NCBI GenBank assembly: GCA_964200075.2 | Contig: CAXNAA020000004.1 | Coordinates: forward strand, 1-56,402 | Length of the DNA stretch: 56,402 nucleotides | Source of the DNA: Sphacelaria rigidula | Taxonomy: Eukaryota | Direction of reading: 5' to 3' | In this document: piece after piece, positions 2,191 to 56,402 of the stretch | How the letters are laid out: each line of letters opens with the position of its first letter | How positions within the stretch are numbered: the first letter of the stretch is position 1 | Program-made: the position numbers and the translations under genes | Notes under the pieces: model-generated | The model's database searches: none | What the model was told of the DNA's origin: nothing | The model's input: only the letters and a program-made list of their open reading frames with translations

Positions 2191-3150
2191 CTAAGAGTTT
2201 AGTCGCCGTCTTTTCTTACTGCCCGGACAGTTGTTGGCCTTGGTGTACTCTACAACCCGTTTGTGCTTCCTGTCCACCGCAACTTTGAACGTCAACGAAT
2301 TCCACGGGCAAGGAGGGTTTTGAGACCTCGCCCACTCCAGCACCTCCAAGTGACCGCCGTATGCCGACATCCAACAAACTCGCGGATCCCATGGACACCC
2401 AAGACCCCTTAGGTACTTGACCAAGTCCAAGTGGCCCTTCAATGCTGCCATGGAGATGAGCGAAGCGTCTAAGTTGCAACCAGACTCGTGAAGGACATTC
2501 ACCGTGTCCCTACTTCCACTAAGACCACTGTACGTCATGACCTTCTCAGAGAACCCTCGGAACTTGAACACTTGGCTAAACACACGAAGAGCGGGAATAT
2601 TCCCGGTCTTCGCCGCCTCAACCTCGGCATCTTCGTCCAACTCACACTTGTTCTTCATCAACCACCTAATTACTTCTACACTGTTGGGCGCGTGGACCGC
2701 TTCAACCATGGTCGACACACCCATCGCGTAGTAACCCTTCTTGAAGTACTCCAACAACTCGACAGAACCCGACCTAGCCGCAGCATCCATCATCGGGACT
2801 ACCCGCCTCGAAGCCAACCTGAGGCCCCTCCTCTTGGCGTACAGCCTGACTCGGATGACGCCTCTGAGGTCTCCGCGCCAAGCTGCTGCCCTCATACACT
2901 GTGTAATCAAGAGATTCCCTTCTACTCTTGTTTCGTGGACCAGTCTTGAAATCCTTCGCCTAGACTCCGTCACCATGTGCTTGCTCGTCCGCTTGGCATA
3001 CTTGGGCGAAGTCTTCGGGTGAGAGTTTGTTTGCCATGCTTCATGAAAGCTTTTGTTCAGGCATCCGAGGTAGAGGTACGAGTCGGTCCCGTAGAATTCC
3101 TTGATTATTCTGAAGAGGTGGAAGTCCCCCAGGACTGCAGAGACGGACAT
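2191..3150 (-). CDS. Ankyrin-repeat protein (GCPWD-type repeats common in phaeoviruses and brown algae)
   Basis: AALKGHLDLVKYLRGLGCPWD and SAYGGHLEVLEWARSQNPPCPWN repeats; ATG at 3150 (MSVSAVL) preferred over the GTG at 3357. Confidence 0.85.
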   Translation of the reverse strand: MSVSAVLGDFHLFRIIKEFYGTDSYLYLGCLNKSFHEAWQTNSHPKTSPKYAKRTSKHMVTESRRRISRLVHETRVEGNLLITQCMRAAAWRGDLRGVIRVRLYAKRRGLRLASRRVVPMMDAAARSGSVELLEYFKKGYYAMGVSTMVEAVHAPNSVEVIRWLMKNKCELDEDAEVEAAKTGNIPALRVFSQVFKFRGFSEKVMTYSGLSGSRDTVNVLHESGCNLDASLISMAALKGHLDLVKYLRGLGCPWDPRVCWMSAYGGHLEVLEWARSQNPPCPWNSLTFKVAVDRKHKRVVEYTKANNCPGSKKRRRLNS

Positions 3151-3252
3151 GTCGTACTCGAGTGTTGCCGATGGTTCAAAAAGGAAATGACGTATATGGG
3201 CACCAATAATATATACAAATATCGAAAATACAAAAATGGAAGAAATATTTTC

Positions 3253-3270
3253 GAAAAAAATATTTTTTTC
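3253..3270. promoter_or_regulatory. A/T palindrome GAAAAAAATATTTTTTTC, candidate promoter element
   Basis: Perfect 18-bp palindrome about 100 bp upstream of the ankyrin ATG; similar elements at 3458-3469 and 10168-10181 lie 75-90 bp upstream of other ATGs. Confidence 0.4.
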
Positions 3271-3544
3271 AAATTCTTCAAAAAAAAATCTGGATGAAAT
3301 GATGGACTTCCACGGCGACTGCATCCACGACCGTGATGTCCACACCGGTACTCTCACTTGAAACTACCAGTTTTAGGGGGTCATAAGCACGGATCTTGAA
3401 GAAAATCCAGCGTAAGCAGGAATACGAAAAATATCCAAATCATGGACCCGATCTTCCAAAAATATTTTTTCTGTCGACTTCTCGCCCACCCCAATCACTT
3501 TCCCACCCCCTCCCGCTCTCTCTCAAACACACAACAAGTTTGAC

Positions 3545-6274
3545 ATGGCGGACGATTCGAGTTCCTCGCATTCACGTGGCGCTTCACCCACACATCGCCC
3601 ACGAACTCCTTCTGGTAAGCATGTCGTACTTATCATCCAAGGGAATTCCATGAACGACAATCATGACTAAATATTGTGCGTTTGGCACATTCCCCGTGAC
3701 AATCCCCGTGACATGTTGTGCATGTTGTTTGTTTGGTATCCCTGTTTGATGACATCTTTCACTTGATGCACAATCCCCGTGACATGTTGTGCATGTTGTT
3801 TGTATGGTATTCCTGTTCGATGACATCTTTCACTTGATGCACAATCCCCGTGACATGTTGTGCATGTTGTTTGTTTGGTATCCCTGTTCGATGACATCTT
3901 TCACTTGATGCACAATCCCCGTGACACGTTGTGCATGTTGTTTGTTTGGTATTCCTGTTCGATGACATCTTTCACTTGATGCACAATCCTCGTGACAGGT
4001 TGTGCATGATTGTGCATTTGGTATCCCTGTTCGATGACATCTTTCACTTGATGCACAATTCCCCGTGACATGTTTGGTATTCCTGTTCGATGACATCTTT
4101 TACTTCATGCACAATTCCCCGTGACATGTTGTGCATGTTGTTTGTTTGGTATTCCTGTTCGATGACATCTTTCACTTGATGCACAATCCCCGTGACATGT
4201 TGTGCATGTTGTTTGTATGGTATTCTTGTTCGATGATATCTTTCACTTGACGCACAATCCTCGTGACATGTTGTGCATGATTGTGCATTTGGTATTCGTG
4301 TTCGATGACATCTTTTACTTGATGCACAATTCCCCGTGACATGTTGTGCATGATTGTGCATTTGGTATTCGTGTTCGATGACATCTTTCACTTGATGCAC
4401 AATCTCCGTAACATGTTGTGCATTGTGTTTGTTTGGTATTTCTTTTCGATGACATCTTTTACTTGATGCACAATCCCCATGACATGTTGTGCATGTTGTT
4501 TGTTTGGTATGCCTGTTCGATGACATCTTTCACTTGATGCACAATCCCCATGACATGTTGTGCATGTTGTTTGTTTGGTATACCTGTTCGATGACATCTT
4601 TCACTTGATTGTGCATGTTGTTATCTTTCACTTGATGCACAATCCCCGTGACATGTTTGGTATTCCTGTTCGATGACATCTTTCACTTGATGCACAATCC
4701 CCGTGACATGGTGTGCATGTTGTGCATTTGGTGTTCCTCGTGACTGTTATGCATGTTGTACAGAGCCCTCATCTCCCGTTGGCCCGAGGGCCCTTTTCAA
4801 CGGTGGGTCTCCGGTGACACCGACCCCGTCCTTGATCGGCGCTGCCGTTGGTGCTGGCACGCTGTCGTTGATGGAGTCCGCTGGAGAGCCGGATGATGCC
4901 GGAGGTGCTGCCGAAGGTGCTGCCGGAGGTGTTGCCGAAGGTGCCGCCGGTACCATCGTCTCTGCCGGAGGTGCCGCAAGTTCCGACCTAGCTGCGTTCA
5001 CTGGCGCAAAGACTCTCAAGGAGCTCGGCCTGATGACTCTAAGAACGCTGACAGCTGTATCGCAGCAAGTCTCGGACGTTGGTGCAGAGTTCAGGCAATT
5101 TAAAGAGGATCAGGCAAAAGAGTTTGCGGAGCGGAGGAGAGAGCAGGAAAAGGAGACTGCGGAGCAGAAGAAGTTAAGGGAGCAGGCAAAGAAGCAAGAG
5201 GAGAGGATGAAGAAGCAGGAGGAGAGGATGAAGAAGCACGAGGAGAAGCTCAAAAAGGTTGCCAAGTCGTCAAACTATCTCCGCGTCCACGATGTCGGCA
5301 CTAGAGTCTACCCTCTGCTTCCTCGTCTTTGCGACGGGTACGTCGGGTTGGCTGGGTGGATTCCCGTCGACCACAAGATGGAAAACAGGGTGCTCAAGCT
5401 CGTCGTTCTGTCCATTCCCGTGACCAAGTGGTGGCTCAAGCAGCTGGACCCGTCCTTGGCGTCCGTAAACCTTGACAACTTTCTCAAAGGTTGCTTCGTA
5501 CAATACAACTTCCCCGGGCTCGACCTTCACAAGATGGACATCCAAGAGTTCACAGCTCTACTCCTCAAGACGCCGTTCAGGAAGTACATGGTCGCGCCAA
5601 AGGCGACAGCGACGCAGAAGGCGAACAATACGAACTACATCATCATGAGCCAAGAGTACTTCCGGGGCCTGCTGAATGACATTTACGACGAGTTCGGGAA
5701 GCCGTCCTCGGAGGATTTCGAGGACCTCCCGGCGAACCTGAAGCTTCCCGATTTGATGACCCAACAGTTCGCCGTCACAGCAGCATCCGAGGACGAAGAA
5801 AGCGACACCCCATTCATCGAGACCCTTGACCGTGCTCTCACGTACGAGGAACGCAAGACTTGCCCTGCCGCCAACTTCTCTTGGTGGCGAGAGGCGTACG
5901 GGTCGGGCATGAGGGAATTCTTCGGTATGCCTGCCGAAGACGACGAAGGCATCCTGTATCACGTGCGGAACGGAGTGTACGCCCCGGAGTCATCGAGGAA
6001 GAGAACGGTGGGTAACTTCAAGAAGTTTTTGGAGCGGTACGGACGAGTGAAGGAGGACACCGACTCAGTGCAGCGGCCGAAGGGCAAAGGCAAGGGGAAG
6101 GCCCCGAATAGCGCCGCAAAGAAGGTGGTGAAGAAGAAGAAGGTGGTCAAGAAGGGTACTGCATCATCGACGACTACATCGTCTTCCTCGGCGAAGAAGA
6201 AGACCGCTTCCACCACCACCAACAACAAGAAGCGGTCGGCCGAAGGCGGTGGATCGTCGAGCGGTTCCACCTAG
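3545..6274 (+). CDS. Spliced hypothetical protein with coiled coil and Lys-rich tail; exon 1 3545-3614, intron 3615-4763, exon 2 4764-6274
   Basis: ATG 3545 opens MADDSSSSHSRGASPTHRPRTPS, then G|GTAAGC. The acceptor TGTACAG| at 4763 is phase 1 and restores GAG in the frame of the long 4703-6274 ORF, which has no ATG until 4871. Confidence 0.72.
3690..4760. repeat. 71-bp tandem array, ~15 copies, inside the predicted intron (array 1)
   Basis: Unit aatccccgtgacatgttgtgcatgttgtttgtttggtatYcctgttcgatgacatctttcacttgatgcac starts at 3701, 3772, 3843, 3914, 3985; some units are internally deleted. Confidence 0.97.
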
Positions 6275-6348
6275 AAGAAGAAGAAGAAGAAGACGTAGAG
6301 CTCGTCGTCGTACGCAGAGTAGTGGCAAAAATGTAGGACTTGTACAAG

Positions 6349-7056
6349 ATGCCAAACATGTCAAACATGCCAAAGTCTTGTGTATCGGTGATTACGCCGA
6401 CGATGCGGTCGAGGACGAAGTTCATTGATCTGATGCTGCTCAACGTAAGTAGTCAGACATATCCGCATGAACGACTTGAGTGGGTGGTTGTGCGGGACTC
6501 CGATGATTTTACAAGGGGCATTTTTTTGGAAGCCTTCAAAACAATACCTACCATATCTTGCCGATACTTTTCGTGTGACATTGACGGAGATATCGGCAAG
6601 AAAAGAAACTACGCTTGTTCTCTTGCGAAACACAAGATCTTAGCTTCGATTGACGATGACGACGTGTACAACAGGGAGTACCTTGAGTATTCCGTCTCAG
6701 ACATGAATAAAAGGGGAGTCAACATGGTTGGTTGCCGCGACATGCTCGTATTCTTCCCCCATTTCGAAGGCAAGATGACATGCGTGCGGGGTTCGCTGGT
6801 TCACGAGGCTACCATCGTTTGTCGGAAACAGCACTGGCGCAAGTGCAAGTACTCTGAAAAGTGCATGAAGGGCGAGGGTTCTTCGATGGTGGCTGGGTCT
6901 TTTTTCAACGAGATGGACATTACGAAAGTCATGGTTTGTATGGCCCACAACTCTAACACGTACGACAAGACGAAACTTCTTGAATCCGCCGAGGTTGTCA
7001 TCGCAGACAGTACACGAAAAAGACTTCTTCTTCTCCACCAAGAAGTGATGCGTTGA
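6349..7056 (+). CDS. Glycosyltransferase family 2 (GT-A fold)
   Basis: VSVITPT, QTYP..LEWVVV, IGKKRN, and IDDDDVY (DxD) motifs. Confidence 0.85.
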   Translation: MPNMSNMPKSCVSVITPTMRSRTKFIDLMLLNVSSQTYPHERLEWVVVRDSDDFTRGIFLEAFKTIPTISCRYFSCDIDGDIGKKRNYACSLAKHKILASIDDDDVYNREYLEYSVSDMNKRGVNMVGCRDMLVFFPHFEGKMTCVRGSLVHEATIVCRKQHWRKCKYSEKCMKGEGSSMVAGSFFNEMDITKVMVCMAHNSNTYDKTKLLESAEVVIADSTRKRLLLLHQEVMR

Positions 7057-7104
7057 ACGGACTTCGTTTTTTTAATTGCCCATGGTCAAAAAAATACTCT
7101 AGCG

Positions 7105-7614
7105 ATGACCTCTCGCGTACTTGTCGGAGCGGTCAGAGGTAGCCTCTTCGGTCTCATAGGCGGATTTGTTCTCGGAGCCGCGGGCAACGTCGTCGCTCCT
7201 CCCGTTGAGTACGAGAGAATACTCGTCTGGTCAAACAAGTTTGGCAAGAGGACGCGATTCACCCACCTAGAGTCGGCCTCGATCTTGAAAGAGGACCTAC
7301 TGGAAGTCTTTAAGCAACGCCACTACAACATTGATGCTTTGAACGAAGCCTTCCGGAACATCCAGAGTGCCATAACGCTTTACCACCCCGTCAAGGCCGA
7401 GCAAGAGGCGGCCGAGGTTATGACTGCCACACGAATGACCAACTACGTCATCCGAGCTTCCAAAGCGATGGAAGCCATCCACGTTGAAATCTTGGTGAAC
7501 GATGCCGTCAAGGCTTCCCATTTCCAGAAAGCCATGATGAACATACAGCTCTCCCTGGAGGACATGATCAATTTCGTTAGACTCAAGTCCAAGAATGTCC
7601 TTCCGACGATGTAA
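7105..7614 (+). CDS. Hypothetical protein with N-terminal hydrophobic Gly-rich segment
   Basis: 169-aa ATG ORF with virus-like codon usage. Confidence 0.7.
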   Translation: MTSRVLVGAVRGSLFGLIGGFVLGAAGNVVAPPVEYERILVWSNKFGKRTRFTHLESASILKEDLLEVFKQRHYNIDALNEAFRNIQSAITLYHPVKAEQEAAEVMTATRMTNYVIRASKAMEAIHVEILVNDAVKASHFQKAMMNIQLSLEDMINFVRLKSKNVLPTM

Positions 7615-7662
7615 CCCTCGTACGTGTGTCCCGACTTTTTATCTCTTCGAAAAGTAAAAAAG

Positions 7663-8187
7663 ATGTCTGCCATCACGTACCAGTCGTTCAACAGCCTTTT
7701 GTGCGAGTTTGTTTCCGAGCTCAGCCAAACGTTTGACGAATACCCCGAGCTCGCAAAGTCGAATGAAACCCTGACTTCGCTCATGGCCTTAGCCGACACC
7801 ATTTCTCTCCCGATGAAGACCTTTCACAAGACGTTCGAAAAGCATTCCTCGATGATCATGAATAAGGACCCTACCCTGTTCGAGAAGTGCAGCATACCGT
7901 ACACGGACTCTTTTGACCTGAACAAGGAGTACAACGAGTCTGACGCGGATACCCAGAACGCCATCCGGAACTACCTCCAGCAACTATTCGTGACGGCAAC
8001 GACGGTGCGAAACATGCCGGCATCGATGATGACCAACATCGAGAGTGTAGCCCAGGCCTGCATGCAGAAGGTCCAGTCGGGGGAAGTGACGGAAGAACAG
8101 GCGCAGAACCCTTTGTTCATCATGCAGCAGCTGCAGCAGAACCCCGACCTGATGAAGGCAATGCAACCGGATGATGGGCAAGGATAG
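7663..8187 (+). CDS. Conserved NCLDV-type hypothetical protein
   Basis: FNSLLCEFVSELSQTF...KDPTLF...TQNAIRNYLQQL pattern recalled from phycodnavirus hypotheticals; ATG follows an A-rich leader. Confidence 0.7.
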   Translation: MSAITYQSFNSLLCEFVSELSQTFDEYPELAKSNETLTSLMALADTISLPMKTFHKTFEKHSSMIMNKDPTLFEKCSIPYTDSFDLNKEYNESDADTQNAIRNYLQQLFVTATTVRNMPASMMTNIESVAQACMQKVQSGEVTEEQAQNPLFIMQQLQQNPDLMKAMQPDDGQG

Positions 8188-8231
8188 ATAAATGTTTAAA
8201 TAGGTTGTCAAAAGTCATCAAGTAAAGAAAA

Positions 8232-8696
8232 CTAAGAAAATTCTAACAAGTACTTGCTTCTCTGATCGTTTGGACTCCTCTCCGAGGGCAACTGTGAATC
8301 GGGCAAGATAAAGGTGTTCTTATCCACCCCTAATCCTACGTCATCCGGTTCGGATTCCTCCTGTCTCTTCTTCTTCCTTCGTTTTCTCATCGAATTGGAA
8401 GTCTCGATGAGGTAGGAGAGAGCAAATTCTCCTGCACACTGCCCGTTGTACAAAATGAGGTGCGGGCTCAGAGCGCTCCCGGCACTTCTTAGTTGCTGGA
8501 AGCAGTATCTGATGTCCCCCACGGTCATGCCGCATATCCTAGATCTTGCGGTGGACCTATACCGCTGAGATCTTTTGGTCTGTCTCATCATCACTCTCTT
8601 CGCCTCCTGGGGTCGGTAGGAGAAGGGGTCCCGGCTGAACCCGGTCTTTTCACAGCTCTCTTCGGGTCGTTCAGAGTCGTTCTCACTTTTTATCAT
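8232..8696 (-). CDS. Hypothetical protein
   Basis: ATG at 8696 (MIKSEND), divergent from the next gene; the 5' extension in the ORF track overlaps that gene and is unlikely. Confidence 0.55.
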   Translation of the reverse strand: MIKSENDSERPEESCEKTGFSRDPFSYRPQEAKRVMMRQTKRSQRYRSTARSRICGMTVGDIRYCFQQLRSAGSALSPHLILYNGQCAGEFALSYLIETSNSMRKRRKKKRQEESEPDDVGLGVDKNTFILPDSQLPSERSPNDQRSKYLLEFS

Positions 8697-8757
8697 TCTA
8701 GGGTAAAATCCAGCTAACACTGTAACATAATAAAAATCTAAGCGAATCTTCCACAAA

Positions 8758-10164
8758 ATGGAACTCGGATACCTCTGCGACGCCGTGGACGAGTGGCAGA
8801 GAAGACGCATCCAATACCTTGAGGAAAACAACATGGCGTACGCGGACATGGCGTGGGAAGTGGAGGGCAAAATCCTGCCCGACTGCAAGCAGGTATATGC
8901 CGGATCAATTTTCTTGACGACCCTTTTCGAGACTTCCATGGCATCAGGTCGGCGCGAACAGCAAGGGCTTGTGGTATACCCGCTGAACGAAAAGCACCAC
9001 GTGTTCAACATGATCAGAGTCTTTTGCCACACGGGGCTCATCGTTTTTGCCAAGGGAGAAACAATTGTGCGCACCATCGAGCGGTACGCGGCATTTCACT
9101 ACTACGGCATCGAGCAGGGCAAACATGTTCTCAAGAGACTGATCTCAGACAACCTCACGCCTTCCAACGCCACCATGGCTTTCGAGTATGCGGTACACCG
9201 GGACGACGCGGACCTGTTGTCGGACATCAAGACGTACATCTGCAACTACGCCTTCCTTGTTTTCCGGCACAAGAGCTTCTTCAACCTACGGAGGGAGTCC
9301 ATGGGTGAACTCGTGAAGCTTTGCAAGAGCGACAAGCTCAACGTGCTCGAGGTAGACCTCTTGAGCAATCTCTACCGTCTTTGCGAGAAGAAGGTCGGTG
9401 AAAAAGAGTTCCCAGAATTCAACAATGCTTTCGATGTCTTGACCAACAAGTTCTCGTCGGACGACCTGAGCCTCTGGGACGTGGTCCGATTGACGAGCAT
9501 CTCCATGGAGGAGTTCATGCAGTTCGTGCAAAAGCACCCGGGAGCTATGACCAACGACGACATCGTCCGCGTGATGCAGACCATCTACAACCAAGATGTT
9601 GTCGAAGGGGTAGGGTCAAAGAAACGGAAGAAGTTTCAGACGGTCTCGTCCTACCCAAGGAACCTTGACTTCAGGGCGGCGCAGAACCCGCAGGCGGATG
9701 TGGCCCACTGGGAGAGGGACAAAGTACAGACATTCTTCGTCTTTGACTTTGCAAAGAAAGAGACAGTTGCGCTGCCCTCGATCTCCTTCGGGGACAGGCA
9801 CGTGCGGTGCATCGTGACTCCCTCGGACAAAAACATCGGGCTCAGAGGGCATGTCGCGAGCAGATCGTTGGCCGAGGAACACAACAAAGACGAACAAGTT
9901 TTCGTCAAGTTTAGCGCGTCTATCGTGAATTTTCGCCACGATCGCTGGAAGAAAACGTCCGTGGTGGTGAAGCTGACCAACCCTTGCGAGTTCGAAATCG
10001 TCAACGTTCTTTCATGTAACGCGATAGAGGGATCCTCGGGGACATCCACGGGATACGTTTTCGACGTCAACAAATACCCAGACTACTCGGAGCACGGGTC
10101 GTGGTTGATGATGTCGCTGTCTGTGGAAAGTGCGCTAGGGTCGCATGAAAAAAGCATTCCGTGA
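8758..10164 (+). CDS. BTB/BACK-like domain protein
   Basis: LFETSM...; LISDNLTPSNA...LLSDIKTYICNYAFLVFRHKSFFNL...LCKSDKLNVLEVDLL follows the BTB-BACK pattern. Confidence 0.7.
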   Translation: MELGYLCDAVDEWQRRRIQYLEENNMAYADMAWEVEGKILPDCKQVYAGSIFLTTLFETSMASGRREQQGLVVYPLNEKHHVFNMIRVFCHTGLIVFAKGETIVRTIERYAAFHYYGIEQGKHVLKRLISDNLTPSNATMAFEYAVHRDDADLLSDIKTYICNYAFLVFRHKSFFNLRRESMGELVKLCKSDKLNVLEVDLLSNLYRLCEKKVGEKEFPEFNNAFDVLTNKFSSDDLSLWDVVRLTSISMEEFMQFVQKHPGAMTNDDIVRVMQTIYNQDVVEGVGSKKRKKFQTVSSYPRNLDFRAAQNPQADVAHWERDKVQTFFVFDFAKKETVALPSISFGDRHVRCIVTPSDKNIGLRGHVASRSLAEEHNKDEQVFVKFSASIVNFRHDRWKKTSVVVKLTNPCEFEIVNVLSCNAIEGSSGTSTGYVFDVNKYPDYSEHGSWLMMSLSVESALGSHEKSIP

Positions 10165-10257
10165 TACAAAAAATATTTTTTTCGCAACAAATAGTTTCTT
10201 TTCGATCCCCTCAGCAATCCTCGCCCCCCCTAGCCTCACAATTTTCTCACACCCAAC

Positions 10258-10920
10258 ATGAACTCGCAAAATCAGACGGACGGAGTTGAAAAATGTACCA
10301 GGTGCGGACGATTCCACCACTCCAGCAACTACTGCGACTACACCACGGACTACCTCGGGCGCGACCTGGTGCGCGATTTGTTTTGCACGTCTTGCGGGAG
10401 GTACGGCCACACATCGGACACTTGTTCCCGCTCGCGCCCTCCGCTGTTCTACAAGTGCGGGAGGTACGGCCACATGCACAGGGATTGCCAGGCCTTCTCG
10501 ACGATCGACAACATGGAGGTTTCGAAGATCCGTGTCTGCAAGTTTTGTGGAGAGTTCGGGCACCTGCCGGAGAATTGCAAGCGAAGAGCTAGGTCGAAGT
10601 GTCGCACGTGCGGAGAGTTCGGGCACACTGAGTGCTCCAAGAAGCGACGTAGGACGTCTTCGGAGAGGTTTGAGAGGTCTGACGAGCGTCCTTTGAAGCG
10701 TGTTAGGCCTAGATCCCCCGTGCAGCCCGCGGAGAAGTCGCTTACTCGTTCTCCTTCGTCGTCTAGCTCGTCTAGCTCGTCGTCTAGCTCGTCGTCCAGC
10801 TCGTCGTCGTCTAGCTCGTCGACTGGCAAGGGTCCTAGGTTTCCGTGGGGGGAAGTGTACTTCACAGACATCGAGTGGTTGTTTGATGTTGATGACGAAC
10901 TGTTGGATGGGTTGCGTTGA
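10258..10920 (+). CDS. CCHC zinc-knuckle nucleic-acid-binding protein with Ser-rich tail
   Basis: Several CX2CX4HX4C-type knuckles (CTRCGRFHHSSNYC, CTSCGRYGHTSDTC, CKFCGEFGHLPENC); one knuckle begins FYKC instead of CYKC. Confidence 0.85.
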   Translation: MNSQNQTDGVEKCTRCGRFHHSSNYCDYTTDYLGRDLVRDLFCTSCGRYGHTSDTCSRSRPPLFYKCGRYGHMHRDCQAFSTIDNMEVSKIRVCKFCGEFGHLPENCKRRARSKCRTCGEFGHTECSKKRRRTSSERFERSDERPLKRVRPRSPVQPAEKSLTRSPSSSSSSSSSSSSSSSSSSSSSSTGKGPRFPWGEVYFTDIEWLFDVDDELLDGLR

Positions 10921-10994
10921 ATGTATCATTTGCAGTGACTCTCGATTCTCTTTATTTTGTGGAAATTTTTCTCTTGTAGAATCAATTAATTATC

Positions 10995-22528: not shown

Positions 22529-23634
22529 TGTTCGATACCAAGGCATCCCTGGTTAGTCTCAACGACCGGTCGAGTCCTTCGAAATCTTCACCAGGGTTTC
22601 GGTACAAGGTGAGTTCATGGTTCCCCGTGCGGACAAGAAACTCGGCGGCGTCGTTGTTGGTCGCTTCGGAAAACTTGGCCATGTTGGCCGCCGTCAACAA
22701 CGAAGCACGCGTATTTCGCCATTGCCGAGCCCCGGCTTTACTTTGCTTGAGGCTTCTTCTCAAGCTCTTCGTCGCCAATTTCTCCAAGCTGGGCGTGGTC
22801 TTGATGAGTTGAGGTGACAGTTTCATGACAAACAGTCTCATGTCGAGGTCGCCGTGCGCGGATGCTTTTTGCGCGAACATGAATTGTGACACGGAATAGA
22901 AAGTCTCTCCTCCGTAGACAAAGGGGAAAGCCGTGGAGATTGCGGACAAGAGACTCAACATCTACCACATGGTTGTCATGCACACTCGCCGGAGACTCAT
23001 CATCTAACACATGGTTGTCATGCACCCTCGCCGGAGACTCATCACCTAACACATGGTTGTCATGCACACTCGGAGAAGACTCAGCGTCTACCACATGGTT
23101 GTCATGCACACTCGGAGAAGACTCAGCGTCTACCACATGCTCGTCATGCACACTCGGAGAAGAGTCAATGTCTACCACATGGTTGTCATGCACACTCGGA
23201 GAAGACTCAGCGTCTACCACATGCTCGTCATGTACCCTCGGAGAAGACTCAGCGTCTACCACATGGTTGTCATGCACACTCGGAGAAGAGTCAATGTCTA
23301 CCACATGGTTGTCATGCACACTCGGAGAAGAGTCAACATTTACCACATGGTCGTCATGCACACTTGGCGGAGACTCATCACCTAACACATGGTCTTCATG
23401 CACCCTATCCGGAACGGGAAATGGCACGCGTTGGTCGGGCGAGATTTTGGATAAGAAGGGAAACACGTATTTCGGCATGATGAATGTCGTGGATTTGTTT
23501 TTGGACCTCCTCTTGGATTTCTTTTTACACCTGCGACGACAGGTTTTGACGCATTTCTTGGAGGATTTCTTTTTGGTGGTGCACGTTTTTACGCATGTTT
23601 TAAAACACGCTTTCTTGCGGGGCGTTTTTGACAT
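22494..23634 (-). pseudogene. Basic Cys/Lys N-terminus + 11x 14-aa repeat + divergent NADAR domain; frameshift near 22950
   Basis: The ORF from 23634 has KKC-rich and VHDNHVVDAESSPS repeats; a shifted frame carries PFVYGGETFYSVSQFMFAQKA...W...ANMAKF...LVRTG (NADAR/YbiA-like). Confidence 0.68.
22955..23410. repeat. 42-bp coding tandem repeat x 11
   Basis: Unit ctaccacatggttgtcatgcacactcggagaagactcagcgt repeated. Confidence 0.95.
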
Positions 23635-23734
23635 TGGGATATATATAGTTACATTTGTACATACATTTTAATATCAATGCACTGGTGCGTTGGAAAATCT
23701 GTCTTTTAAATTCATTGCCTGGTTCAAAAAAACC

Positions 23735-33664: not shown

Positions 33665-35815
33665 ATGCCGGCGAAGAGTAAACTCAAAAAGTGCAAAGCA
33701 CCTCAACGTCGGAACCCCAAGACTGGGAGATGCAAGAAGCCTACGAGGAGTCTAAAAAAATGCAAAGCACCTCAACGCCGGAATCCTAAGACTAAGAGAT
33801 GCAAGAAGCCCTGCAGGAAGGACCAGGGAGTTAACCCACGCACAAAGAGATGTGTCACGAAGAAGCATCTGAGGACGTTGAACGACTTTGACGACTTTGA
33901 CGACTTTGACGACTTCGACGACTTCGATGGGTATGACAACTTTGGCGAGGTGGGCCGCGACAACCTGAGTGACGTGAGTGACGTGAGTGACTACGAATCC
34001 CAACACCAACCTAATGGCTTCCCTACTTCACCTCGAGTCTTCCCAAGTGTCTCCTCTCCTTCCCCACCTCGAGTCTTCCCAAGTGTCTCCTCCCCTTCCC
34101 CACCTCGACCAAATGGCTCCCCAAGTGTCTCCTCCCCTTCCCCACCTCGACCAAGTGGCTTCCCAAGTGTCTCCTCCCCTTCTCCAAGTGTCCCCTCCTC
34201 TTCTCCACCAAGACCCAGGCGAGTCATGAGGCCAGAACGACGAGTTAGGTTCGATCTACCTCCTCGCGGACCGAACGACCCTCCTCCGGAAAACCGCTTC
34301 GATAGACCTTTACGAAGACGTACGCGGGTGCCTCCTCCACGAGGTAACGTGTTTGACCCGGCAGCAGTGCCTCCTGTGCCTCCTCCTCCACGAGGTAACG
34401 TGTTTGACCCGGCAGCAGTGCCTCCTGTGCCTCCTCCTCTACGAGGTAACGTGTTTGACCCGGCAGCAGTGCCTCCTGTGCCTCCTCCTCCACGAGGCAA
34501 TGTGTTCGATCAGAACCCGGGTTTTAACCCGAGGGATTTCGACAGGAAGCCAGCTGCTGACCCGACAGCAGTGCCTCGTGTCAGGATAGTTTTACACGAC
34601 AGTGAAGCCCCGTATTCCCATGGTTCACACCTCATTTCCAATATCACCCACTTTCTGGACATTTACGTCAGTGAGTGGTTTGATGAGGTAATTGACACGG
34701 TTGGACTAGATGCTCGAGGCGTACTCCTAGACACGTTCAATCTCACAAGAAACCTCGCGACGACGAAAAGTCAGGATGTTCTGATGTCAAACTACACGGA
34801 GGTTTTGAATGACCTCCAGGGTCGGGCCAAAATGTTTACCCAGGTCCTATCTCACAAGAACCCTCTTCTGCAGGACGCTGGTCGGTTGGAGAAGCTCATT
34901 GAAGGGTACATCAAAATCCAAGCCGATATCCGGGCGAGTGAAGACCACGTGAGTCTCGTTGGCACACTTGGTCCGACCACGTATGATGCCGCTCTACACA
35001 ATCTTGCCATCGACGGTTCAGCATTATCTGCGGGAAGCCCGTGTTACGTTGTTTTCCCGGGGATAGAGTGGGTGGACAACAGTAGTGCAACAAAACGCGA
35101 ACGCATGCACGTTGTTAGCTTAGAAGACCCTAACTCTAACCCTCCCCCCCAAACTTCAAATTCTTCGGCTGATTCCACGGGTGTACCTGTACCGGTGTGT
35201 CACCGCCCAGGTTGTACCAGGCCACGATATGTTGAAAATGGAAGAACACACGACTACTGCGGGAGGAGGTGTGTAAACAGTCATCGTACGGGTATTCCTC
35301 CTGCAGTGGCGACGACGTTCAATCCACAGACACTTTGTCACGAGACGCCTTCCATGATTTTGTTTTACGACGAGACTTGTCCTTTTTCTCAGTGGTCGAA
35401 TCACTCGTTTCAACACGAGAACGTCACATACAAGACTGCTGAACATTTCATGATGTCCAAAAAAGCAATTCTCATGGGAGACCGCGCGATGGAGATCGCA
35501 ATCATCGCTGCGCCTGGACCGGGAGACGCGAAGCGCCTGGGTAGAAGTATACGAAATTTCAGTCAGCGTATTTGGGACAACAAAAAAAGAGAAATTGTGC
35601 AAATGTGAAATATTCTCAAGTTTAGACAAAACCCCAATATATTGTCGATGCTTTGTGCCACCGGTAGCAAGACCATGGTGGAGGCCGCTGGGAATGATTT
35701 AGTGTGGAGATGCGGTCTGAAACACAACGACCCTCGTATCCACGATGCTACGAACTGGAGAGGGGAAAATTTGCTCGGGAGAATATTGGACGATGTGAAG
35801 AACATTTTGTGTTGA
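33665..35815 (+). pseudogene. Multidomain protein: NPxTxRC repeats, Pro/Ser repeats, zinc finger and C-terminal NADAR domain; in-frame TGA at 35606-35608
   Basis: FSQW...F...YKTAEHFMMSKKA...AKRLGR..W...IV.M*N..KFRQN...L.ATG...VEA...D.VW..G...WRGENLLGRIL is a complete NADAR domain read through the stop. Confidence 0.85.
34020..34510. repeat. Coding tandem repeats: PSVSSPSPPR-type units and a 51-bp unit (RGNVFDPAAVPPVPPPP) x 3
   Basis: Direct repeats visible, e.g. cgaggtaacg at 34340, 34391 and 34442. Confidence 0.9.
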
Positions 35816-43494: not shown

Positions 43495-43805
43495 AAAACC
43501 CAAATATTTGTCATGTACGGCAGAACAGACAAGCCACGACGACCATTTCTTTGTCATGCTGCCCAACGAAGCCTATCGAAATACCAAATGTTCGTCATGT
43601 ACGGCAGACAAGCCATGACGACCATTTCTTTGTCATGCTTCCCAAGTAAACCATCTGGAATACCAAATCTTTGACATGTGCGGCAGAACAAACAGATTTC
43701 TTTGTCATGCTGCCCACGTAAACCATCCGGAATATCAAATCTTTGTCATGCTGCCCAGGTGAATCATTCGGAATTCCAAACCTTTGACATGCACGGCAGA
43801 ACGGC
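43495..43805. repeat. Degenerate repeat cluster between convergent OTU and RNR genes (array 2)
   Basis: Recurrent tttgtcatgctgccca, gaataccaaa and catgtacggcaga motifs. Confidence 0.8.
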
Positions 43806-55779: not shown

Positions 55780-56402
55780 ACTTCTTTGTCATGACGCAAA
55801 CCACATACTACGTGCGCAACCATTTTCACGAGTGTATACTTCAACACATGCGTGACATCACAGCCAATTCTTCGTCATGTGGTGCAATTCAATAGATAGA
55901 TATATCAAACCTTTGTCATGCAACACATGCCTGACATCACTACCAATTATTCGTCATGTGGTGCAAGTCAATAGATTGTGATACCAAACCTGTGACATCT
56001 CTGCCAGTTCTTCGACATGTGGTGCAAGTCAATAGATTGGAATACCAAACCTTTGTCATGCAACACATGTGTGACATCTCTGCCAATTGTTCGTCATGTG
56101 GTGCAAGTCAATAGATTGGAATACCAAACCTTTGTCATGCAACAAAATTATTCGTCATGTATGTGGTGCAAGTCAATAGATAGGTATTCAAAACCTTTGT
56201 CATGCAACACATGTGTGACATCTCTGCCAATTATTCGTCATGTGGTGCAAGTCAATAAGTAGGTATTCCAAAATCTTTGTCATGCAACACATGTGTGACA
56301 TCTCTGCCAATTATTCGTCATGAGGTGCAAGTCAATAAGTAGGTATTCTAAACCTTTGTCATGCAACACATGTGTGACATCACTTCCAATTATTCGTCAT
56401 GT
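55780..56402. repeat. 79-bp tandem array, at least 7 copies, running off the window end (array 3)
   Basis: Unit catgtggtgcaagtcaatagattggaataccaaacctttgtcatgcaacacatgtgtgacatctctgccaattrttcgt, e.g. at 56016 and 56095. Confidence 0.95.

Follow-up and report, generated by a model that had tools for sequence, protein, structure and literature searches.

A predicted spliceosomal intron filled by a tandem-repeat array in a phaeovirus-like gene from Sphacelaria rigidula

Introduction

Spliceosomal introns have been described in the large viruses of brown algae. RNA sequencing (RNA-seq) placed such introns in 14 of the 372 genes of an active endogenous phaeovirus of Ectocarpus (EVEc), including those for DNA polymerase and the major capsid protein, and their splice sites are host-like according to the parts of the report consulted here (PMC13236599). 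The same parts cite chlorovirus genes as further carriers of spliceosomal introns. An older statement holds the genes of EsV-1 to be without introns, and the same source, citing the EsV-1 genome paper, describes gene islands with large tracts of repeated DNA between them (PMC2373305, consulted in part). In Ectocarpus, 95.3% of introns are GT-AG, with no dominant hexamer and GTGAGT the commonest at 12.5% (PMC3787667, likewise in part). Here we analyze a stretch of 56,402 nucleotides from Sphacelaria rigidula (GCA_964200075.2, contig CAXNAA020000004.1, positions 1 to 56,402 of the forward strand), hereafter the window, and in particular a long open reading frame (ORF) preceded by a 71-bp tandem array that probably lies within a spliceosomal intron of the same gene.

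The virus segment in the window resembles EVEc in that it belongs to a nuclear giant virus of a brown alga, in that its proposed intron has GT-AG boundaries following the host rule, and in that its genome is compact and mostly mono-exonic (PMC13236599, in part). Unlike the 14 introns of EVEc, which were defined by RNA-seq, the intron considered here is predicted, and 90% of it is an array of the virus's own dispersed repeat; the consulted parts of PMC13236599 make no mention of the repeat content of the EVEc introns. The array is also like the repeat regions reported for EsV-1, which are tandem arrays with units of tens of base pairs in non-coding DNA, several related arrays occurring in one genome (PMC2373305, in part). 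Unlike those repeats, which lie between gene islands, it would separate the main part of a gene from the exon that holds its start codon, a comparison made at the level of description. Searches of the literature on phaeovirus introns and on EsV-1 repeats, with the supplements of PMC13236599 excluded, found no account of an intron made of a repeat array. Since phaeovirus introns and large repeat regions are both already in print in the consulted parts of these sources (PMC13236599, PMC2373305), the locus is less surprising than the sequence-only reading that first proposed the intron had assumed. The novelty of the proposed intron lies in what it contains and in where it probably came from; as a kind, phaeovirus spliceosomal introns are already known.

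The introner-like elements of algae and fungi are dispersed single-copy insertions, each of them an intron, that carry their own splice signals. The proposed intron would be like them in that one copy of a repeated genomic element forms an intron with splice signals of its own. It is unlike them in being a tandem array, and two other arrays of its family in the window were not seen to be intronic.

Results

Probable coding sequence upstream of the first in-frame ATG

The locus is best explained as a phaeovirus gene of two exons, divided by a spliceosomal intron that the array fills almost completely, a reading to which we assign a probability of roughly 0.65 on sequence evidence. The frame of the long ORF opens at 4691, after TGA 4688-4690, and contains no ATG before that at 4871. 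As the sequence-only reading had observed, the ORF therefore starts with a long run of codons that lacks an ATG, amounting to 60 codons (56 if counted from GTG 4703).

A conserved motif lies within this run. The hexapeptide SPVGPR is encoded in the ORF frame, 27 codons upstream of ATG 4871. A six-frame translation of the window (112,800 residues) has a single match to the pattern SP[VA]GPR, and only two of the 63 other family proteins compared, P0004 and P0066, contain it. In P0004 the sequence is TSPVGPR, with SPVGPR at residues 26-31. In P0066, a protein of 609 residues, Met and 25 S/T/P-rich residues are followed by SPAGPR at residues 27-32 (TSPAGPR), and the called N-terminus is one contiguous ORF. 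SPVGPR falls at residue 27 in the spliced model of the window gene, which is the P0066 position. Alignment with MAFFT put the motifs of the three proteins in shared columns, ahead of a G/A/S-rich low-complexity region common to all three. Homologues thus do not all begin near MESAGEP, the peptide that ATG 4871 opens, because two of them carry a motif encoded upstream of that Met in the window, and this result favors the intron.

If SPVGPR is translated, the start codon must be upstream of 4772. The only near-cognate in-frame codons in 4691-4771 are ATC 4697 and GTG 4703, both of which lie behind dozens of out-of-frame ATGs. Of 36 gene starts in the window, 27 have a purine at position -3. For ATG 3545 this base is G, as is the base at +4; for ATG 4871 position -3 is T. 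In addition, the GC content of the 80 nt before ATG 4871 is 0.65, the highest of the 42 starts listed, with most confirmed genes at 0.24-0.45. The array contains 63 sense-strand ATGs, so that an unspliced leader would make a poor message. Together, these features give indirect support to a coding sequence that would extend upstream of ATG 4871, and the proposed exon 1, which begins at ATG 3545, appears to be the best source of its start codon.

Candidate splice signals and frame

All positions named in the sequence-only reading were correct when the sequence was read again, including ATG 3545, the donor GTAAGC, the array, the pentamer GTGAC and the ACAG end (Table 1). The array makes up 1040 of the 1149 bases of the proposed intron (90%), in agreement with the earlier description of an intron almost filled by repeats. 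The phase-1 join of 3614 to 4764 likewise stays open, with no stop codon created, and the product would be collinear with P0066 at the motif. However, a script listed 233 frame-keeping combinations of ATG, GT and AG in 3325-4870. Frame compatibility alone is therefore not beyond chance, and the case for splicing must rest on other evidence.

The donor provides part of that evidence, as it is the only hexamer starting GTAAG or GTGAG among the 233 combinations. The sequence G/GTAAGC at 3614/3615-3620 has the U1-complementary, GTRAGT-like extension and the preceding G of a U2-type 5' splice site. Only three AG dinucleotides occur in 4640-4870, and that at 4763 is the first. It ends a YAG trinucleotide (ACAG) and is the first AG after the branch-like site and after an AG-free run of 765 nt. 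In U2-type introns, a branch site of the consensus yUnAy lies 18-40 nt upstream of the acceptor and is followed by a pyrimidine tract. The candidate branch adenine here is A4743 within GTGAC, and pyrimidines account for 11 of the 18 bases between it and the AG, a tract that is only moderate. Part of the array unit recurs, in degenerate form, as the final 28 bases of the proposed intron, and both the branch-like GTGAC and the acceptor thus sit in array-derived sequence.

The sense strand of the proposed intron is poor in AG: 45.5 would be expected in 3615-4763, and 4 are present. No AG-free run elsewhere in the window is as long as two within this interval, which measure 765 and 357 nt. The sense strand of the 71-bp array has 1 AG per kb, compared with 34-55 per kb for three other arrays in the window.

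Promoter-like motif and leader of the proposed first exon

The strict motif A4+TATT4+ is found at only three sites in the window, 3254-3269, 3458-3470 and 10168-10182. A looser AT-palindrome pattern has 12 matches where 1.73 are expected, and none of 100 shuffles reaches 12. From each strict site, in one direction, an ATG-free stretch of 87-119 nt ends at ATG 3545, ATG 10258 or ATG 3150. ATG 10258 is the start of a CCHC zinc-knuckle gene (Pfam zf-CCHC, 25.9 bits; cut-off 20.8). The leaders before ATG 3545 and ATG 10258 contain C at 0.47 and 0.43, respectively, and G at 0.08 in both, while C content upstream of 21 other plus-strand genes is 0.12-0.33. ATG 3545 and ATG 10258 therefore share one upstream build, an AT palindrome followed by an ATG-free, C-rich leader of about 75 nt. 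This arrangement suggests that a transcription unit does begin before 3545.

The combination of an A4+TATT4+ palindrome, an ATG-free leader and an ATG, found at confirmed genes in two of three cases, may represent a small promoter class of the virus. The third case concerns an ankyrin-repeat ORF on the minus strand (2191-3324). Its longest version starts at ATG 3324, which lies upstream of the AT-rich promoter-like region, and the start is more likely the in-frame ATG 3150 (minus strand), making the gene 58 codons shorter. The zinc-knuckle gene (10258-10920) encodes five CCHC-like zinc knuckles and then a run of 22 serines, and is overlapped by a longer, arginine-rich and probably spurious minus-strand ORF at 10135-10929.

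The 71-bp array belongs to a dispersed repeat family

Tandem Repeats Finder reported the array with a period of 71, 80% matches, 7% indels and a score of 1244, and a separate repeat search found 14 copies in register. Two other arrays, at 43526-43792 and 55842-56402, have units of 72-80 bp that can be aligned to the 71-bp unit once it is reverse-complemented. The core GGAATACCAAAC-N6-WCATGCA, which lies on the minus strand in the 3699-4738 array, is common to both. An alignment of units from the three arrays has 16 invariant columns, including GGAATACCAAAC-like and CATG blocks. The first of the related arrays lies between the stop codon of the ribonucleotide reductase large subunit gene and the end of a convergent ORF, which has a weak otubain-like match below the Pfam cut-off (E = 0.0026). 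The second lies beyond the last ORF and extends as far as the window end. The unit core is thus present at several loci within the window, as in a dispersed tandem-repeat family. Neither of the other two arrays in the 56-kb window was seen to be intronic, as copies of an introner-like element would be, and the family is therefore a dispersed non-coding repeat rather than an intron-specific one. A pattern for the array unit had 0 matches in IMG/VR.

The sequence-only reading had offered two roles for the array, a source of structured intronic RNA or a cis-acting element. The former was not borne out. Three units fold at -48 kcal/mol against a shuffle mean of -48.9 (z = +0.21); out of 200 shuffled sequences, 110 do equally well. 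Rfam has no family at threshold in 3300-5000, the only match being mir-279 at 22.9 bits against a gathering score of 56 (E = 0.14), and no Rfam family of self-splicing group I or group II introns matches the same interval at E <= 1. The longest minus-strand ORF in the array (160 aa) has no Pfam family. With no RNA-level or coding sign, the array is best read as a DNA-level element that would be spliced out, either a protein-binding repeat or one that expands selfishly. The core shared with opposite-orientation arrays outside the intron points the same way and is also compatible with a cis-acting role.

The host gene and its protein family

The long ORF is intact, and the invariant columns of the homologue alignment are preserved in it. 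Pfam has no family for it. An exhaustive phmmer search found 58 family representatives at E <= 0.001, seven of them at E <= 1e-30. Three word-index searches retrieved only five close relatives (40-50% identity), and a cluster look-up added P0066 as a 609-aa member of the P0006 cluster. Searches of IMG/VR by single sequence or alignment, and one scan of a Joint Genome Institute (JGI) metagenome, yielded no relative of the protein. A family profile matched a 154,641-bp IMG/VR virus record at E = 4.1e-19, where P0001 alone gave no match.

An AlphaFold2 model built with 58 sequences has a mean pLDDT of 80.2. In this model the N-terminal residues 1-47 are disordered and are followed by a helix of 86 residues, a globular core of alpha/beta type and a K-rich tail that is again disordered. 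The only significant fold match in a Foldseek search of BFVD is FirrV-1-C2 of Feldmannia irregularis virus a (E = 4.3e-15, 401 columns, 16% identity). The protein thus resembles a FirrV-1-C2-like family in sequence and predicted fold over the globular core. It is unlike FirrV-1-C2 in the low identity and in its long low-complexity N-terminus. Foldseek found no match in PDB at E <= 0.001, and VIA-align returned only generic long-helix matches (Z <= 7.1) over model residues 42-137, the globular domain not having been queried alone.

P0006 (497 aa) and P0066 (609 aa) belong to one 90% cluster and have different N-termini; the contigs that encode them measure 61,597 and 61,911 bp. P0006 begins where P0066 reads V, which indicates that N-terminal gene calls are unstable in this family, perhaps for the same reason as in the window.

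Sequencing runs and contigs

None of the sequencing runs listed is recorded as RNA. Runs X1 and X2 contain 0.80 and 0.76 of the sequence words, respectively, and the runs guessed to be RNA contain 0.03-0.10. An 18.4-kb contig from X1 matches the window across 4700-10700 without a single differing letter or gap, and may be the window's own source. The contigs from X4, X5 and X6 are 151-194 nt long with a depth of 2-3 and lie inside 5200-6505; the X4 and X5 pieces are identical.

Discussion

In the mechanism that we infer, host RNA polymerase II would start just downstream of the AT-palindrome element near 3458-3470 and translation would begin at ATG 3545. Phase-1 excision of 3615-4763 (GTAAGC to ACAG) by the host spliceosome would join the 23-codon exon to the long ORF and yield a protein of about 526 residues with an S/P-rich N-terminus that includes the SPVGPR motif. 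The last degenerate unit of the array would supply the branch-like GTGAC and the acceptor region. The array, as a member of a dispersed family and a DNA-level element, would be tolerated inside a gene because it is spliced out, and any function it has would be exercised in the DNA. The join of a 23-codon exon to the long ORF, the central claim of the sequence-only reading, is the best-supported account of the locus on comparative and contextual evidence, with the splice itself standing as a prediction.

Several observations weigh against this account. The depletion of AG in the array amounts to the copying of one AG-free 71-bp unit, for which we estimate a chance of roughly 0.01-0.08, and the approximately 25 distinct substitutions among the copies, counted by eye, are too few to show selection against new AGs. 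Codon usage in exon 1 is non-coding-like (-0.54 bits/codon, a value as low as which is found in 1.5% of true in-frame 69-nt windows), and that of the segment 4766-4870 is ambiguous (-0.08). Exon 1 and residues 1-23 of P0066 are weakly alike, with 4 identities (shuffle P = 0.10). Pairwise BLASTP of the 35-residue segment is also weak, at E = 0.031 for P0004 and 0.24 for P0066, and the argument for upstream coding is consequently one of collinearity and rarity and not of a strong score. A local alignment of the leaders before 3545 and 10258 is insignificant once composition is kept (shuffle P = 0.11). In the 154,641-bp record, the distant homologue has its own ATG and consists of a simple 255-aa ORF, with no array nearby. 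Finally, sequences from X1, X4, X5 and X6 over 4700-10700 contain no joints and no loose ends; none of these runs is recorded as RNA, and the stretch begins downstream of both exon 1 and the donor, so that the result is uninformative on splicing.

One alternative is that no splicing occurs. The array, or the DNA that bears it, would then have been inserted into the 5' coding end of a formerly contiguous gene, leaving exon 1 as a stranded remnant, and a shortened protein would be made from ATG 4871 by a promoter inside or after the array, or else the gene would be decaying; the array would be part of a 1.5-kb intergenic repeat region like those of EsV-1. Such a locus would be in keeping with the related arrays, which lie outside this intron, the one at 43526-43792 between convergent ORF ends, and with the EsV-1 gene islands that large repeat regions part (PMC2373305, in part). 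A start at ATG 4871 gives a product of 467 aa, a typical length for the family, and the codon usage of exon 1 and the many chance combinations of frame-keeping GT and AG are as this proposal would have them. Yet SPVGPR would be untranslated and nevertheless kept in frame, the GC content of 0.65 before ATG 4871 is unlike that upstream of any other listed gene, the base at -3 is T, and the ORF is otherwise intact. A random insertion is also unlikely to start with GTAAGC, end with ACAG and restore both the frame and the distance between motif and Met. We regard the absence of splicing as unlikely. Translation of the N-terminal extension by another route is less probable again. It could involve a non-AUG start in 4691-4771, a different 5' exon or a donor inside the array, or a one-base assembly error that brings ATG 4749 into frame. 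The region 3325-4870 does offer many weak donors (GTGACA, GTATTC and others) and 66 ATGs, and N-terminal calls vary in the clade, as P0006 and P0066 illustrate. No alternative donor has G at +5, however, and GTG 4703 is in a poor context behind dozens of out-of-frame ATGs. The identity of the X1 contig to the window argues against an assembly error, with the reservation that the two may have one source. Least probable, to the point of being barely credible, is that the array gives rise to a functional structured or small RNA or forms a self-splicing group I or group II intron. Only the regularity of the repeat and the sub-threshold mir-279 match favor it. Folding no better than that of shuffles, the lack of Rfam intron or RNA families at threshold, and the core common to arrays in the opposite orientation outside the intron, which speaks for a DNA-level element, all argue against it.

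If the array-filled spliceosomal intron is real, its membership in the virus's own repeat family would make its content a guide to its origin. One possibility, which we hold to be less likely than not, is that a viral repeat gave rise to the intron. Insertion of a copy of the virus's dispersed 71-80-bp array family into the 5' coding region of an ancestrally contiguous gene, followed by its expansion there, would have produced a spliceosomal intron whose branch site came from the repeat unit and whose acceptor AG came from a few substitutions in the last unit. P0066 reads through the proposed insertion point as one ORF.

If the splice is real, the locus adds one more case to the short list of phaeovirus spliceosomal introns and bears on intron gain and on the use of host mRNA processing by nuclear giant viruses. 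It would also mean that gene callers that rely on ORFs, as are common for giant viruses, would place the start of this gene wrongly, at 4871 or a non-ATG codon; variation among the N-termini called for its homologues suggests that such errors already occur. If the intron was indeed born from a repeat, it would represent a recent, datable intron gain in a giant virus, and giant viruses could park cis-acting or selfish arrays inside genes by way of the host spliceosome. If there is no splice, the locus is an ordinary repeat region beside a gene.

Feature coordinates and window context

Table 1. Positions of the features of the locus, numbered from the first base of the window.
Feature	Position	Strand	Remarks
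Promoter-like AT palindrome, A5-TAT-T6 type	3458..3470	.	Strict motif A4+TATT4+
C-rich, G-poor, ATG-free leader	3471..3544	+	Precedes ATG 3545
Proposed exon 1, coding part	3545..3614	+	ATG 3545-3547 plus 22 codons plus 1 base (70 nt), ends at G3614; S/P/R-rich peptide
Proposed spliceosomal GT-AG intron	3615..4763	+	1149 nt, phase 1; donor GTAAGC 3615-3620, acceptor ACAG 4760-4763
71-bp tandem array	3699..4738	+	14.6 copies; 55-56-bp deletion variants and a GATTGTGCATTTGG subtype
Branch-site-like GTGAC	4740..4744	+	A4743 is 20 nt before the AG; same pentamer in most array units
Proposed exon 2, including stop codon	4764..6274	+	G/A/S/P-rich disordered N-terminal region, long helix, globular core, K-rich tail
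SPVGPR codons	4772..4789	+	In frame, upstream of the first ATG
Rival start, first in-frame ATG of the long ORF	4871..4873	+	Position -3 is T

The window is a phaeovirus-like segment of a giant virus. Pfam identifies an A32 packaging ATPase, both ribonucleotide reductase subunits, an AEP primase, an RFC-like AAA protein and a papain-type protease. A protein in the 154,641-bp IMG/VR record shares 68% identity with the A32 protein.

Two further repeats lie within or across ORFs. At 22951-23403 a 42-bp unit is repeated 10.8 times (88% matches), with ORFs overlapping it on both strands (22738-23634, minus; 23168-23671, plus). As the period is a multiple of 3, this array could be a coding repeat; the minus-strand ORF 22738-23634 has no Pfam match. 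At 34331-34506 a 51-bp unit is repeated 3.5 times (96% matches) within a 647-aa ORF (33665-35608) that ends in a NADAR domain, and it presumably encodes a proline-rich repeat of 17 residues.

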